Source: Escherichia coli (lineage in GTDB: Bacteria; Pseudomonadota; Gammaproteobacteria; Enterobacterales; Enterobacteriaceae). From it: a stretch of DNA of 64,000 nt. Below, piece by piece: positions 50,557-64,000 of the stretch; the first letter of the stretch is position 1, and every line of letters begins with the position of its first letter. The stretch lies in the NCBI RefSeq assembly GCF_003334255.1, contig NZ_QOWU01000021.1, one strand, 5' to 3'. A program made the position numbers and the translations under genes. Under the pieces are notes generated by a model. The model was given only the letters and a program-made list of their open reading frames with translations. It did not search any database and was not told the origin of the DNA.

Positions 50557-53427
50557 TTATATTTTTTCCAGCGCAGTGAGTATTTTCTCCGGTGTGAAAT
50601 GCCATTCGCGTAACCAGATGCCGCATGCATCGTGAATTGCGGTAGCAATCGCCGGAGCTGCGCCATTTACACCGATTTCCGAGATCGATTTCGCCCCGAA
50701 CGGGCCGACTTTATCGTCGCTCGGCACCAGCACAGCGCGGAAATCACGCGGAATGTCACCAATTTTCGGTGCGCCGTAACTGCGTAAATCACGCGTTAAC
50801 GGGTGACCTTCGGCGTCATAAATGATCTCTTCGCTCATACTGTGGCCGATAGCACGCAGGGTGGCACCGTAGATTTGTCCCAACGCTAACTCTGGATTGA
50901 CCGGTGTACCGCAGTCCAGCAAGGCGTAGAATTTATCCAGGCGGATTTCACCCGTACGCGTGTTGACGGCAACTTCAGCGAAGTTTGCGCCATACGGGAA
51001 GGCGAAATCAGGCGTGATATAACTGCCAGTTCCCACCAGTGAACCAAAGCCGGTGCCGGTTTCGCCTTTATGGGCAATATCCCCGAAACTAACTTCGCCT
51101 TTCTTGCCGCGCACGACGCCCGGCGTTGCCAGTTGAACATCTGCCACTGGCTCACCCAACATTTGCGCGCCGTGGAACAGAATTTTCTCCCGTAGATTTT
51201 CCGCTGCCAAACGCGCCGCGTTACCCGAGAAGCAAGTACCGGACGAGGCATATGCGCCTTTATCAAACAACGCATGATCGGTATCACCGGAGATAACATG
51301 CACGTCCTGCGGTGGGCAGTGCAGCACTTCTGCTGCCAGTTTCGTCACTACAGTATCCAGACCAGTACCAATATCCGCACCGCCAGAATGAACGATAAAG
51401 GTGCCGTCCGATTCCAGTTTGATCATGCAGTTAGCCTGATCGATATCCGGGATACCCGATTTCTGCATGATAATGGCGACGCCGCGACCGATGTGCCAGT
51501 CACCATTTTGCGGTTTCGGTGACGACCATTGGATCATCTCGCGACCCTGACGCAGGATCTCTTCCAGTGCACAGCTGGCGGCGGAAGGAACGGAGGTCGG
51601 CGCTTTACCTTCACCGATTGCACCGAGAATTTTCAGCTCTTGCCCTTCGTGTACCCGGTTACGTTCGATAATTTCCAGTTGGTCGATCTGTAACTGTTCA
51701 GCCAGTTCCGCTAATGCCATGGTGATAGCGAAGTTACCTTTCGGTGCGCCATAACCCTGATAAGCACCATTTGGGCAAATGTTGCTGTAGTAGGTGGTGA
51801 CCTGGAAATCGACGTTATCGCACGGATATAACGGCAGCGACAGCGCCGGTCCGTTACACGGTACGGTGAGTGAGTGGTTGCCGTAAGGGCCAGTGTTGGC
51901 GCGGAAATCCATCTTCACTGCCGTCAGGCGACCATCTTTTTTCGCTCCCAGTTTGACGGTGACTTTCGCGACGTGACGAGAGGTGTTAGCAATAAACTCT
52001 TCTTCACGGGTGTAGCGGAACAGTACCGGACGCCCGGTCACGCAGGTTGCCCAGGCGCACACTTCTTCCAGCAGGATGTCCTGTTTGGAACCAAAACCGC
52101 CGCCAACTCGCTCTTTAATGACATGAACTTTATGCTGTTTCATGCCCACGAGGCGCGCGACCTGGCGGCGTAAGTGCCATGGTACCTGGGTGGAGGCGTG
52201 GATAACCAGACGATCGCCGTCCATACGAGTAAAGCAGATATGTGTTTCAGTCGGGCACTGCTGCGCTTGCGTTGAGTTATAGGTTCGCTCAATGATCACA
52301 TCGGCATCGGCAAAGCCTTTGTCCATATCGCCAATATGACCATGAATACTGGCGGCGATATTTTTGCGAGGGCGAGAACCGATCGGGAAGTTGATGATCA
52401 TATGCTCGCCGCGCTGGGCTGCATGGCTGTTATCGTCTTCCAGAGTATCTGGCGCACCAGCAACATACACCACCGGTTCATCGTGCACGACAGGCGCATC
52501 TTCCGCCATTGCTTCGTCGATCGACATTACCGGCTTAAGCACTTCATATTCAACGTCGATGAGCTTCAGTGCTTCGAGCGCAATTTCTTCACTTTCTGCG
52601 ACGACCGCAGCAACACGATCGCCGACGTGACGCATTTTCTTGCCGAACATACGGCGGTCAAGCGGTGACGGTTCCGGTGCGCTCTGACCACCCGGGGTAT
52701 AGTAGATATCCGGGCAATTCAGGTGAGTAATAACGTGAACGACGCCCGGTAAGGCTTCAGCTTTGCTGACATCCAGATGAGTAATCAGTGCGTGAGCGTG
52801 TGGGCTACGTAACATTTTAATGACGCAGGCGTCAGCCGTTACGCGGTCTTCAACATAGCAGGGTTTCGCCTGCACCATTTTCGCGGCATCAGTTTTAGGA
52901 TAATGCTTACCAATGACTTCTAGGTCGTCACGGAAAGTCGGAGCGATATCAATGGTGGCCTGCGGATTATTTTTACGTGCAACCGCCAGTTCAATGACCT
53001 GATAGTATTGCTGCCAGCCAGCATCGCGGCTGAACAAACCAGAAAGCGCGTCGTCGATCTCTTCGCGGGTAGGTGCGGCGATGCGATCGAGAAGATCGGT
53101 GATAATCAGAGCTGCAGCTGGATCGTTATAACCAGACTGCACCACGCCAACATCAACCATTGCCTGTTGAACCAGACTTAACTCGTTCCATTTGCCCAGA
53201 GATTCTGCGGTACGAATATCTGCCTTCTCTAACTGTGCGGCAATAAGCAAGGACGCGTTAACGATATTACCGTTAAAGATTATTGCGTCAGAACCGGCAA
53301 ACCCGAAACCATCATCACTGTTGCGTACAGAGTGCATTCCCATGTTAAACAACAGCTTTTGCACGTTTTCGCCTGGATTAACGGTTAGCTCCTGAGGCGC
53401 GCCATTTAAAGTAAAGTGGATGATCAT
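50557..53427 (-). CDS. xdhD: molybdenum hydroxylase family protein XdhD (xanthine dehydrogenase-like Mo subunit fused to a Cys-less ferredoxin-like N-terminal domain)
   Basis: 956-aa ORF MIIHFTLNGAPQELTVNPGENVQKLLF...; aldehyde oxidase/xanthine dehydrogenase Mo-binding domains; see findings. Confidence 0.93.
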   Translation of the reverse strand: MIIHFTLNGAPQELTVNPGENVQKLLFNMGMHSVRNSDDGFGFAGSDAIIFNGNIVNASLLIAAQLEKADIRTAESLGKWNELSLVQQAMVDVGVVQSGYNDPAAALIITDLLDRIAAPTREEIDDALSGLFSRDAGWQQYYQVIELAVARKNNPQATIDIAPTFRDDLEVIGKHYPKTDAAKMVQAKPCYVEDRVTADACVIKMLRSPHAHALITHLDVSKAEALPGVVHVITHLNCPDIYYTPGGQSAPEPSPLDRRMFGKKMRHVGDRVAAVVAESEEIALEALKLIDVEYEVLKPVMSIDEAMAEDAPVVHDEPVVYVAGAPDTLEDDNSHAAQRGEHMIINFPIGSRPRKNIAASIHGHIGDMDKGFADADVIIERTYNSTQAQQCPTETHICFTRMDGDRLVIHASTQVPWHLRRQVARLVGMKQHKVHVIKERVGGGFGSKQDILLEEVCAWATCVTGRPVLFRYTREEEFIANTSRHVAKVTVKLGAKKDGRLTAVKMDFRANTGPYGNHSLTVPCNGPALSLPLYPCDNVDFQVTTYYSNICPNGAYQGYGAPKGNFAITMALAELAEQLQIDQLEIIERNRVHEGQELKILGAIGEGKAPTSVPSAASCALEEILRQGREMIQWSSPKPQNGDWHIGRGVAIIMQKSGIPDIDQANCMIKLESDGTFIVHSGGADIGTGLDTVVTKLAAEVLHCPPQDVHVISGDTDHALFDKGAYASSGTCFSGNAARLAAENLREKILFHGAQMLGEPVADVQLATPGVVRGKKGEVSFGDIAHKGETGTGFGSLVGTGSYITPDFAFPYGANFAEVAVNTRTGEIRLDKFYALLDCGTPVNPELALGQIYGATLRAIGHSMSEEIIYDAEGHPLTRDLRSYGAPKIGDIPRDFRAVLVPSDDKVGPFGAKSISEIGVNGAAPAIATAIHDACGIWLREWHFTPEKILTALEKI

Positions 53428-54203
53428 ACGGCTTCCTCCCCAGCCTGTTGGCAGTCGGCATACAGGTCGGCTACCAGAACTCCCGTGATATAGCGTTTAT
53501 AGGCCACGCTGCCCCGCAAATCTTCCTGCGGGAAAATGGCGTTGGCGACAGCCTGTTCAAGTGCATTGCCTTCCAGATTTTGTTTTTCGACATCATGCAG
53601 ACGCAGTGCTTTACTGGCGACGCCATCCAGCGCAATTCGCATACCGTCGTGGTCTGTCATTGCAACGGCTGCCGTCACGACGGTTAAACCTGCCTGAGAA
53701 CGGCTAATTTTGCGGGTCGCACAGGTGCGATACGGATCTTTAATGATAATTTCGGTTAGCAGGCGATCGCATGGGCAGGCCAGGTAGTCCTCGATTGACA
53801 GCGTTTCGCCGTTGCCAAAAACCAGTTCAGCATCCAGTGCCAACAGGACGGGAAGCAGCACCGACTCTTCCTGGCGGGCGGCGATTTCACCACCAATGGT
53901 CGACTGATTACGAACATGGCGTGAGTAAACAAAACCGAGGGCTTCACGCAGCGCTGCAGGAATAAATCGCGCATCACGCAGTGGCTGCAAGCGAGACATT
54001 GCGCCAATCCGCAGTGCACCGTTATCCCAGTCAACCCAGTCCAGTTCCAGATCCTGTAAGGAAATGGCAATCTTTTTATCGGTACGGGTTGGTGTAGCAT
54101 TGAGTTTGCTGCCCCCGGCGAACCAGACGGCTTCATCCTGGTAGCGGCGCTTCAGTTCCAGCGCCTGTTCGACAGAGTCGGGCCTGAAAAATTGTTCAAT
54201 CAT
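53424..54203 (-). CDS. ygfM: FAD-binding molybdopterin dehydrogenase subunit YgfM
   Basis: 259-aa ORF MIEQFFRPDSVEQALELKRRYQDEAVWFAGGSKLNA... (CoxM/XdhB-like); 3' end overlaps xdhD start by 4 nt. Confidence 0.9.
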   Translation of the reverse strand: MIEQFFRPDSVEQALELKRRYQDEAVWFAGGSKLNATPTRTDKKIAISLQDLELDWVDWDNGALRIGAMSRLQPLRDARFIPAALREALGFVYSRHVRNQSTIGGEIAARQEESVLLPVLLALDAELVFGNGETLSIEDYLACPCDRLLTEIIIKDPYRTCATRKISRSQAGLTVVTAAVAMTDHDGMRIALDGVASKALRLHDVEKQNLEGNALEQAVANAIFPQEDLRGSVAYKRYITGVLVADLYADCQQAGEEAV

Positions 54204-54253
54204 CTTCTTTCCTTATTTAACCCTCTTCTCTGCGGGAAGAGGGCATCTGTCAT

Positions 54254-63282: not shown

Positions 63283-63329
63283 TTTTCCTCACTCATCATT
63301 CTTGATTGTGTATAGATCCCTGGCAGTGG

Positions 63330-64000
63330 TTAGAGCACGGGAGGGACAAACGGTTTGCGTCGCAGGAAACGACCTCGCCCGGCTTTGCCTGTAAAGGTGC
63401 CGTCACAGAAAATCGTTTCACCACGGGATAAGGTTCTGACAATCGCGCCCTGACAGGTAAAACCCTCCCATGGCGAGTAGTCGGCGTTGTCGTGGAGATG
63501 GCGATGCTGAATTTGTTGGCTCTGACGTGGGTCGATAATCACCACGTCGCCGTCGGAACCGGGCGCTAATAATCCTTTTTGCGGCCACAGGCCAAACAAC
63601 CTGGCGGGCATTGCGCTGGTTAATTCAACAAAGCGTTCCGGTGTTATACGTCCCGTCATCACGCCACTGGAAAACAGTAACTGCATGCGGTTTTCCACAC
63701 CGGGTAAGCCATTTGGGCAGCGACTGAAATCGCCTTTAGAAATTTGCAGGCGTTGAGCCATCGAGAAGGTGCAGTGATCGGTTGCCACCACGTCAATCGC
63801 ACCATCGCTGATGCCACACCACAGTTTGTCCTGCTCGCGTACGTTACGCAGCGGTGGGCTAAGAATGAACTTCATGCCATCTTCTGTATCGTAACTGCGT
63901 TCGTCCAACAGGAGATATTGTGGGCAGGTTTCAACCCAGACTGGCTGGTGATTCGCACGGGCAAGACGCAGATAATCCAGACCTAAGCCGTTAGACAGGT
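63330..64000 (-). CDS. hyuA: D-phenylhydantoinase / dihydropyrimidinase-like amidohydrolase, C-terminal part (5' end beyond window)
   Basis: ORF 63330..63908 ...DGAIDVVATDHCTFSMAQRLQISKGDFSRCPNGLPGVENRM... (cyclic amidohydrolase motifs); open frame presumed to continue to window edge. Confidence 0.8.
   Translation of the reverse strand, partial: LSNGLGLDYLRLARANHQPVWVETCPQYLLLDERSYDTEDGMKFILSPPLRNVREQDKLWCGISDGAIDVVATDHCTFSMAQRLQISKGDFSRCPNGLPGVENRMQLLFSSGVMTGRITPERFVELTSAMPARLFGLWPQKGLLAPGSDGDVVIIDPRQSQQIQHRHLHDNADYSPWEGFTCQGAIVRTLSRGETIFCDGTFTGKAGRGRFLRRKPFVPPVL

Follow-up and report, generated by a model that had tools for sequence, protein, structure and literature searches.

We analysed positions 50557-64000 (13.4 kb) of a 64-kb stretch of Escherichia coli DNA (contig NZ_QOWU01000021.1; the whole 64 kb is called the window below), a segment organised around xdhD, ygfM, ssnA and ygfK, the core marker genes of clusters for the anaerobic reductive breakdown of uric acid. 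Gene calls were taken from the open reading frame (ORF) listing and from the annotation of the chromosome of E. coli strain WP7-S17-ESBL-04, which is 100% identical over the segment. The minus strand carries xdhD (50557-53427), for a fused [2Fe-2S] and molybdopterin-binding subunit published as urate 6-dehydroxylase (2,8-dioxopurine dehydrogenase); ygfM (53424-54203), for its electron-entry subunit, which binds flavin adenine dinucleotide (FAD); ssnA (54254-55582), for an amidohydrolase; ygfK (55585-58683), for NAD(P)H:2,8-dioxopurine oxidoreductase; and mocA (59005-59583), for molybdenum cofactor cytidylyltransferase. On the plus strand follow yqeC (59686-60456), for a P-loop NTPase of the selenium-cofactor trait, and yqeB (60504-62129), for an XdhC-type chaperone (residues 12-247) fused to an EF2563-family domain (about 271-526). 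The minus strand then holds yqeA/arcC (62350-63282), for carbamate kinase, and the 3' part of the hydantoinase gene hyuA (63330-64000), whose C-terminal 223 codons lie inside the window; in the identical chromosome (locus L001) the full gene extends to about 64715.

NCBIfam curated cut-offs were applied to each complete product, and all eight exceed them: XdhD (TIGR03313, 2123 bits with a cut-off of 1102), YgfM (TIGR03312, 490 and 242), SsnA (TIGR03314, 738 and 456), YgfK (TIGR03315, 1779 and 835), MocA (TIGR03310, 214 and 186), YqeC (TIGR03172, 241 and 73; also PF19842), YqeB (TIGR03309, 417 and 220, beside its XdhC-type N-terminal half) and YqeA (TIGR00746, 386 and 358). The HyuA fragment matches the D-hydantoinase/dihydropyrimidinase profile TIGR02033 over the C-terminal half of the profile (E = 3e-96), and Pfam agrees on the domain content of XdhD, YgfM, YgfK, YqeB and YqeC. 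These products are full-length family matches and not chance ORFs, and the inventory of nine genes, with their positions, that a first-pass annotation had drawn from the DNA letters stands in full. SsnA aligns to TIGR03314 from residue 2 of its 442-aa form, which supports the ATG at 55582 as the start of ssnA and not the upstream GTG at 55648.

The packing of xdhD, ygfM, ssnA and ygfK is operon-like, as had been proposed from the sequence: ygfM overlaps xdhD by 4 bp, ssnA is separated from ygfM by 50 bp, and ygfK from ssnA by 2 bp. A perfect G+C-rich hairpin, GGCCGCCGAAGCGGCC, at 50532-50547, between the xdhD stop and xanQ, is likely the terminator of the ygfK-ssnA-ygfM-xdhD operon. In 5148 of 5426 complete E. 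coli genomes at least 80% of the 13.4-kb segment is found at one place, the ssnA-ygfK region is single-copy and chromosomal in 5185 of them (95.6%), and the G+C content across the locus is 0.45-0.54. The locus is therefore near-core native E. coli chromosome and not a new insertion, in agreement with the first-pass annotation; foreign origin was considered and ruled out by the typical G+C and the single-copy chromosomal presence. In comparison with MG1655-derived strains, ssnA-ygfK scored 8170 of a possible 8181 bits, that is, it is near-identical, and we infer the catalytic activities of the genes in the window from published K-12 assays together with this near-identity.

The pathway in question is already known and has been experimentally characterised in E. 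coli itself. Urate consumption in the absence of oxygen was linked to the cluster by Liu et al. (Cell 2023) and by Kasahara et al. (Cell Host Microbe 2023). The pathway was then reconstituted in vitro, mostly with recombinant E. coli K-12 enzymes, and checked with mutants in two studies, one by Liu et al. (Nat Microbiol 2025; bioRxiv 10.1101/2025.04.24.650524) and one by Li et al. (Life Metab 2025, PMC12507026); an independent commentary covers both. The label 'biochemically unassigned', which had first been given to this gene set, thus ceased to apply between 2023 and 2025.

In the published scheme, urate first loses its 6-oxo group through the action of XdhD-YgfM with NADH, and the product is 2,8-dioxopurine and not xanthine. 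YgfK then reduces the pyrimidine ring with NAD(P)H, and SsnA at once hydrolyses the product, opening the reduced six-membered ring of dihydro-2,8-dioxopurine to yield ureidomethyl-hydantoin (PMC12507026), which HyuA opens to 2,3-diureidopropionate (PMC12507026). One ureido group is phosphorolysed by YgeW, which moves its carbamoyl moiety to phosphate, and YqeA turns the resulting carbamoyl phosphate into ATP; formation of ATP by YgeW and YqeA was demonstrated by Liu et al. (bioRxiv 10.1101/2025.04.24.650524). After YgeY has stripped off the second ureido group, YgeX turns 2,3-diaminopropionate into pyruvate and ammonia. The HyuA, YgeW, YgeY and YgeX steps were each assayed (PMC12507026). This ending resembles the arginine deiminase pathway, in which ornithine carbamoyltransferase and carbamate kinase likewise make ATP at substrate level from carbamoyl phosphate, as YgeW and YqeA do here; the carbamoyl donor is 2,3-diureidopropionate in the urate pathway and citrulline in the arginine deiminase pathway.

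Considering the gene content together with this chemistry, we put the probability that the window holds most of the E. coli anaerobic reductive uric-acid cluster (the 2,8-dioxopurine or 'yanthine' pathway) at about 0.9. The core marker set of reductive uric acid clusters, xdhD-ygfM-ssnA-ygfK, is contiguous, and the downstream set (HyuA, YgeW with carbamate kinase, YgeY and YgeX) is represented in the window by yqeA and part of hyuA and completed in the identical chromosome, where ygeY, dpaL (ygeX) and ygeW directly follow hyuA. Completeness within the segment itself, which had been claimed, does not hold, as ygeW, ygeX, ygeY and the presumed regulator gene ygeV come only after the end of the window and uacT and ygfT/ygfS precede the segment. 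Compared with the 2,8-dioxopurine cluster of E. coli K-12 and Clostridium sporogenes, this is the same locus, with matching gene order, products and regulatory sites; apart from the fact that the window holds part of the cluster, only strain-level differences are seen, such as the presence or absence of a 180-bp insertion of a bacterial interspersed mosaic element (BIME). In published mutants, deletion of xdhD led to accumulation of urate (made by XdhA) with no 2,8-dioxopurine, and deletion of ygfK abolished formation of ureidomethyl-hydantoin (PMC12507026). The first-pass annotation had called for deletion mutants as a check, and these metabolite changes are the predicted ones; its picture of an N-heterocycle ring-opening route that ends in carbamate-kinase chemistry, with urate among the candidate substrates, matches the published pathway and the reduction of urate by XdhD-YgfM. 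Its reasoning thus largely anticipated the published answer.

The direction of the chemistry was one point on which that reasoning went astray. XdhD contains the Pfam domains Fer2_2, Ald_Xan_dh_C, MoCoBD_1 and MoCoBD_2, and YgfM contains FAD_binding_5 and CO_deh_flav_C, so that the pair has the make-up of the xanthine oxidase family: a [2Fe-2S] domain, an a/b hammerhead, two molybdopterin-binding domains and a separate FAD domain. Members of this family normally hydroxylate, and the clostridial enzyme also runs the reverse reaction in vitro, from which one could suppose that the cluster oxidises and then opens an N-heterocycle, with XdhD acting as a usual hydroxylase on a purine, pyrimidine or nicotinate-like compound. 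We regard such an oxidative route as very improbable, and for urate it is refuted, since E. coli XdhD consumes NADH in reducing urate, and urate made by XdhA builds up in the xdhD mutant; YgfK, the next enzyme, is also a reductase. The pathway is therefore reductive, with a net change of four electrons, and not oxidative as first read: XdhD-YgfM reduces urate and YgfK adds two more electrons.

Relatives of XdhD in the PDB include 4-hydroxybenzoyl-CoA reductase and xanthine dehydrogenases, and XdhD shares 30% identity with E. coli XdhA. Glu606 of XdhD, a residue highlighted by Li et al. (PMC12507026), lies within an 11-residue insertion that is absent from XdhA, and a protein of about 30 kDa, putatively YgfM, co-purifies with XdhD (PMC12507026). 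The selenium-dependent molybdenum hydroxylases of purinolytic clostridia (xanthine dehydrogenase, purine hydroxylase and nicotinate dehydrogenase) belong to the same superfamily as XdhD, and they have in common with the E. coli locus the cytosine-dinucleotide cofactor logic and the marker genes yqeB, yqeC and mocA. Unlike those enzymes, XdhD is physiologically a reductase and its product is the 2,8-isomer instead of xanthine; in XdhD, selenium is a candidate component.

In YgfK, Pfam recognises Fer4_20 at residues 453-532, Pyr_redox_2 at 552-839 and, weakly, a C-terminal dicluster. Residues 1-446, with no prior annotation, are in the structural model a barrel of the dihydroorotate/dihydropyrimidine dehydrogenase type that binds flavin mononucleotide (FMN); a sequence search of solved structures gave no match for this N-terminus. 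YgfK thereby has the domain set of dihydropyrimidine dehydrogenase (DPD): an FMN TIM barrel of the dihydroorotate dehydrogenase (DHODH) type, a helical Fe-S domain, FAD and NADPH domains and a C-terminal 4Fe-4S dicluster. The order differs, however. In pig DPD (Fe-S, FAD, NADPH, FMN barrel, Fe-S) the barrel follows the FAD and NADPH domains, whereas in YgfK it comes first, ahead of Fer4_20. YgfK is a permuted relative of DPD, DPD-like in its working, and not a DPD orthologue. In an alignment of 22 YgfK sequences, Cys97 and the motif S-T-M-H-G-C231-P-P are invariant. Cys97 follows a low-confidence, probably mobile loop of the FMN-barrel domain (residues 87-97), and the Cys231 motif (residues 226-233) resembles the S-C-P motif of DPD and DHODH; Cys97 and Cys231 are candidates for the catalytic acid or proton donor of YgfK.

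This likeness raises the question of whether the cluster could be a second reductive uracil/thymine pathway, with YgfK as dihydropyrimidine dehydrogenase, HyuA as dihydropyrimidinase and YgeY as ureidopropionase. The N-terminal and central domains of YgfK do match DPD and the best family of HyuA is dihydropyrimidinase, but purified YgfK is selective for 2,8-dioxopurine, the intermediates observed derive from urate, and a pyrimidine route would leave the molybdenum enzyme, the urate permease and the diaminopropionate lyase unexplained, which makes it exceedingly improbable. What the urate cluster does share with reductive pyrimidine degradation (PydA/PreTA, PydB and PydC) is its logic, in which a ring is reduced by an FMN/FAD/Fe-S enzyme and then hydrolysed; YgfK has all the domains of DPD, and HyuA is a dihydropyrimidinase-family enzyme like PydB. 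Unlike the pyrimidine route, the substrate is a purine that is first dehydroxylated by a molybdenum enzyme, and one ureido group leaves by phosphorolysis with a yield of ATP.

An older assignment, in which the operon (YgfKLMN) encodes a selenate reductase with XdhD as the molybdenum catalytic subunit and YgfM and YgfK as electron partners, survives in the names of TIGR03313, TIGR03312 and TIGR03315, which still read 'putative selenate reductase subunit', and in the label 'purine catabolism and selenate reduction' given to the region by Haft and Self. The link between ygfK and selenate reduction had been carried over into the first reading of this DNA, and it has been superseded: purified YgfK, selective for an organic substrate, neither requires selenate nor is stimulated by it (bioRxiv 10.1101/2025.04.24.650524). 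XdhD likewise has a defined purine substrate, and the linked ring-opening hydrolases, carbamoyltransferase and urate permease would make no sense for selenate respiration. We consider a selenate reductase highly unlikely.

The reductive urate cluster carries three further genes, mocA, yqeC and yqeB, that may bear on the cofactor of XdhD. MocA reportedly makes the cytosine-dinucleotide form of the molybdenum cofactor, a finding ascribed to Neumann and colleagues in 2009. YqeB (TIGR03309) and YqeC (TIGR03172), markers of selenium-dependent molybdenum hydroxylases, are both present above cut-off, in line with the selenium-linked maturation role first suggested for them. According to Haft and Self (2008), YqeB is confined to genomes with selD (b1764 in their table), a gene that lies outside the window. 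Growth of C. difficile on urate requires yqeB (Johnstone and Self), and DOPDH of C. sporogenes, the orthologue of XdhD, is inactive when purified from a selD mutant, which is attributed to labile selenium.

The EF2563 module of YqeB mostly occurs as a separate protein of about 270 aa, and its conservation is unusually high, with 55-60% identity across phyla. Its structural model (pLDDT 92) combines a Rossmann-like domain with a biotinyl/lipoyl-like barrel-sandwich, consistent with the weak similarity to biotin carrier protein noted by Johnstone and Self. Fold comparison found no solved structure matching the whole module, and a sequence search of solved structures returned no match for YqeC or for the C-terminal module of YqeB. 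A covalent cofactor on the barrel-sandwich was considered and dropped, as the biotinyl position has no conserved lysine. A conserved cysteine as selenium ligand in YqeB was likewise rejected: none of the cysteines is invariant, and E. coli has alanine in place of the most frequent one, which is present in 21 of 39 homologues. Invariant residues of YqeB include E146, R149 and H151, numbered on a 285-residue fragment.

YqeC has the Walker A motif VVGAGGKTS, and its profile matches P-loop proteins of the SIMIBI class, among them FtsY, ArsA and Mur ligases. Of the 150 best YqeC cluster representatives, 15 carry a MocA-type nucleotidyltransferase as fusion partner, in either order, and two a YqeB module, one of these being a triple YqeC-MocA-YqeB fusion; a MocA-YqeB fusion exists as well. 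Moorella has a YqeC-MocA fusion, together with a YqeB module on its own, beside uricolytic genes, which encode XdhD-like, amidohydrolase, carbamoyltransferase and pyridoxal-phosphate enzymes. An operon on a metagenome contig (L004, 4338-12573) encodes TusA, a cysteine-desulfurase-like protein, a selenium/sulfur carrier, SelD, a 777-aa YqeC-MocA-YqeB protein and an XdhD-like molybdenum enzyme; it reads as a complete cassette from selenium delivery through cofactor to enzyme and would be a useful minimal system for studying selenium insertion. The recurrent fusions among the three argue for a joint action of MocA, YqeC and YqeB on the cytosine-dinucleotide cofactor. YqeC would then be to MocA what MobB is to MobA: in both cases a small SIMIBI-class P-loop NTPase accompanies a nucleotidyltransferase, and the two are often fused; since YqeC has no MobB-family match, the likeness is one of analogy and not of family membership, drawn from the fusions and the P-loop class. 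The parallel extends to the mild knockout phenotype, as deletion of MobB has little effect and deletion of yqeC in C. difficile none. Unlike MobB, YqeC has a partner that makes the cytosine dinucleotide, and it is also found fused to the selenium-linked YqeB domain.

On this basis mocA, yqeC and yqeB may constitute a cofactor assembly line for XdhD in E. coli. MocA would make the cytosine-dinucleotide molybdenum cofactor with YqeC as its P-loop helper, as MobB is for MobA; the XdhC-like half of YqeB would hold the cofactor, and the EF2563-type half would install a labile selenium ligand from the selenophosphate of SelD.

Several points weigh against the urate pathway as set out here and its cofactor branch. 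Liu et al. and Li et al. disagree on which ureido group YgeW attacks first and on the cofactor of YgfK, for which Li et al. report NADH or NAD(P)H and Liu et al. find NADPH, not NADH, to be required. The published scheme gives no account of the part of formate and YgfT/AegA in urate use by E. coli. Selenium dependence was demonstrated with the clostridial enzyme, and for E. coli XdhD it is a prediction. Deletion of yqeC in C. difficile has no phenotype, so that the role of YqeC is uncertain, and no MobB model appeared for YqeC among the NCBIfam hits (E up to 10) or the PDB profile hits.

The regulatory sequences of the cluster were also analysed, and sigma-54 sites were recognised by identity to the chromatin immunoprecipitation sequencing (ChIP-seq) sequences of Bonocora et al. 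2015 (PMC4591121). The element GTGGTGCGATTGTTGCT of the ygfK operon (58756-58772, minus strand) is identical to their site OS31. The promoter TGAGCACGAACCTTGCA inside yqeC (60087-60103, plus strand), which drives yqeB, is identical to their site IS34; they showed by mutation that IS34 is the yqeB promoter and found its transcript induced by nitrogen limitation. A third site, TATGCCCGTTTATTGCA (43749-43765, plus strand), upstream of ygfT, is an exact match to the ChIP-seq motif. In an alignment of the ygfK upstream region from this locus and from two further enterobacterial loci, the flanks diverge around conserved -24 and -12 blocks; the conserved islands are these blocks, a CRP site (largely kept in one of the two loci, L007) and a palindrome. 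A search with the sigma-54 consensus gave 42 hits with 43 expected, and the consensus alone cannot single out real sites. A sigma-54 site picked by eye, TGGCAAGAGTGGTGCGA, was discarded, as it is not the ChIP site, which overlaps it and lies 8 nt closer to ygfK. Scans for sigma-70 promoters and terminators were at shuffle level (14 against 13.4 and 21 against 15.2, respectively) and uninformative, and an Rfam scan of 41-64 kb at permissive thresholds detected no riboswitch or known regulatory RNA.

A perfect CRP consensus, TGTGAATGAACTCACA, precedes the ygfK promoter at 58835-58850; the 64 kb contain no other perfect match, and the sequence is a candidate CRP site. A CRP-like candidate with one mismatch, at 60028-60043, precedes the sigma-54 promoter inside yqeC by about 50 nt. 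The two putative sites fit the repression of urate breakdown by glucose reported by Li et al. (PMC12507026).

The palindrome upstream of ygfK, TTATCATTATGATAA (58940-58954), is a candidate upstream activator site of the ygfK promoter. Its pattern, TT(A/C)TCA-N3-TGA(T/G)A(A/T), occurs eight times in the 43-kb locus L001 of the identical chromosome, with 1.7 copies expected and none of 100 shuffles reaching eight. Five of the eight sit in four intergenic regions that bear sigma-54 sites, uacT/ygfT (43570-43584), ygfK, ygeW/ygeV (two, at 33203-33217 and 33232-33246 of L001) and xdhA (39071-39085 of L001), one of these five being the copy from which the pattern was derived; composition-matched resampling of the four regions gave an expectation of 0.21 palindromes, and four were never reached in 5000 trials. 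At both ygfT and ygfK the palindrome precedes the -12 element by about 185-190 nt. Klebsiella oxytoca also has it in front of ygfK and ygfT, and L007 in front of ygfK, with half-sites kept and spacers varying. No description of it was found in the literature examined on this regulon. A sixth palindrome, TTCTCAATGTGAGAA, lies inside yqeC at 60330-60344, about 230 nt past the intragenic sigma-54 promoter and 160 nt ahead of the start of yqeB; yqeC of L007 contains a palindrome at about the same position, and coding constraint could explain this conservation.

The palindrome is a candidate site for binding of YgeV, the sigma-54 activator. Genes grouped in the published 'YgeV iModulon' are xdhABC, ygeWXY, hyuA, ygfK, ssnA, ygfM, xdhD, ygfT and uacT, and lack of co-expression, which the first-pass annotation had named as an outcome that would overturn its proposal, is contradicted by this single iModulon. 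The sigma-54 promoters would drive expression of the cluster, presumably activated by YgeV and with input from CRP. Control by sigma-54, YgeV and CRP would therefore tie the pathway to nitrogen and carbon scarcity.

Taken together, mocA, yqeC and yqeB could be a dedicated line for a selenium-ligated cytosine-dinucleotide molybdenum cofactor of XdhD, in which YqeC would be a MobB-like partner of MocA and not a handler of selenium, the EF2563 half of YqeB would insert the selenium, and the palindrome, bound by YgeV, would switch on the regulon. We offer this combined proposal tentatively, with somewhat less than even odds.

Upstream of the cluster, the purine genes uacT, ygfT-ygfS, ghxQ, guaD and xanQ occupy 41928-50392 according to the annotation of the identical chromosome, with uacT (urate permease) and ygfT/ygfS, which serve the use of urate that depends on formate, at 41.9-46.2 kb. 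In the spacer between yqeB and yqeA (62137-62344), a 28-nt hairpin shared by both genes as terminator is present in two copies, at 62137-62164 and 62317-62344, which flank a 152-bp repetitive extragenic palindromic (REP)/BIME sequence. Many E. coli have one hairpin, no BIME and a region exactly 180 bp shorter, a short form found in 19 of 28 evenly spaced full-length hits; the BIME insertion therefore duplicated its 28-bp target. The only Rfam hits in the scan, sub-threshold matches to the REP-derived families ES036 and naRNA4, lie in the REP sequence of this spacer.

Losses of the cluster were also seen. No ssnA-ygfK match was found in 241 of the 5426 complete E. coli genomes, and about 4% of E. 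coli strains should therefore be unable to run the urate pathway. In E. coli strain E1316 (L003, 8253-9362), IS1 stands in place of about 15 kb from uacT to the 5' end of ygfK, including xdhD, ygfM and ssnA. In K. oxytoca LS483483 (L006, 4443-10443), two ORFs stand in place of ygfK and another two in place of ssnA, the accessory gene encodes an XdhC-type protein without the EF2563 module, and yqeC, mocA, xdhD and ygfM are not among the genes called in the vicinity; either the cluster is decaying or the assembly contains frameshifts.

The medical significance of the pathway has already been recognised and published: about one third of human urate is cleared by gut bacteria that possess it, and E. 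coli Nissle over-expressing the cluster lowered blood urate in uricase-deficient mice. Control of the regulon through YgeV, sigma-54 and CRP is relevant to the engineering of urate-lowering probiotics. Furthermore, the insertion of selenium into molybdenum hydroxylases is a question that has stood for decades, on which MocA, YqeC and YqeB bear, and the fusion evidence and the candidate activator box represent small testable leads on cofactor maturation and regulon control. If the combined proposal of a selenium-cofactor assembly line under YgeV is true, E. coli would offer the first genetically tractable model of that cellular use of selenium which is least understood.

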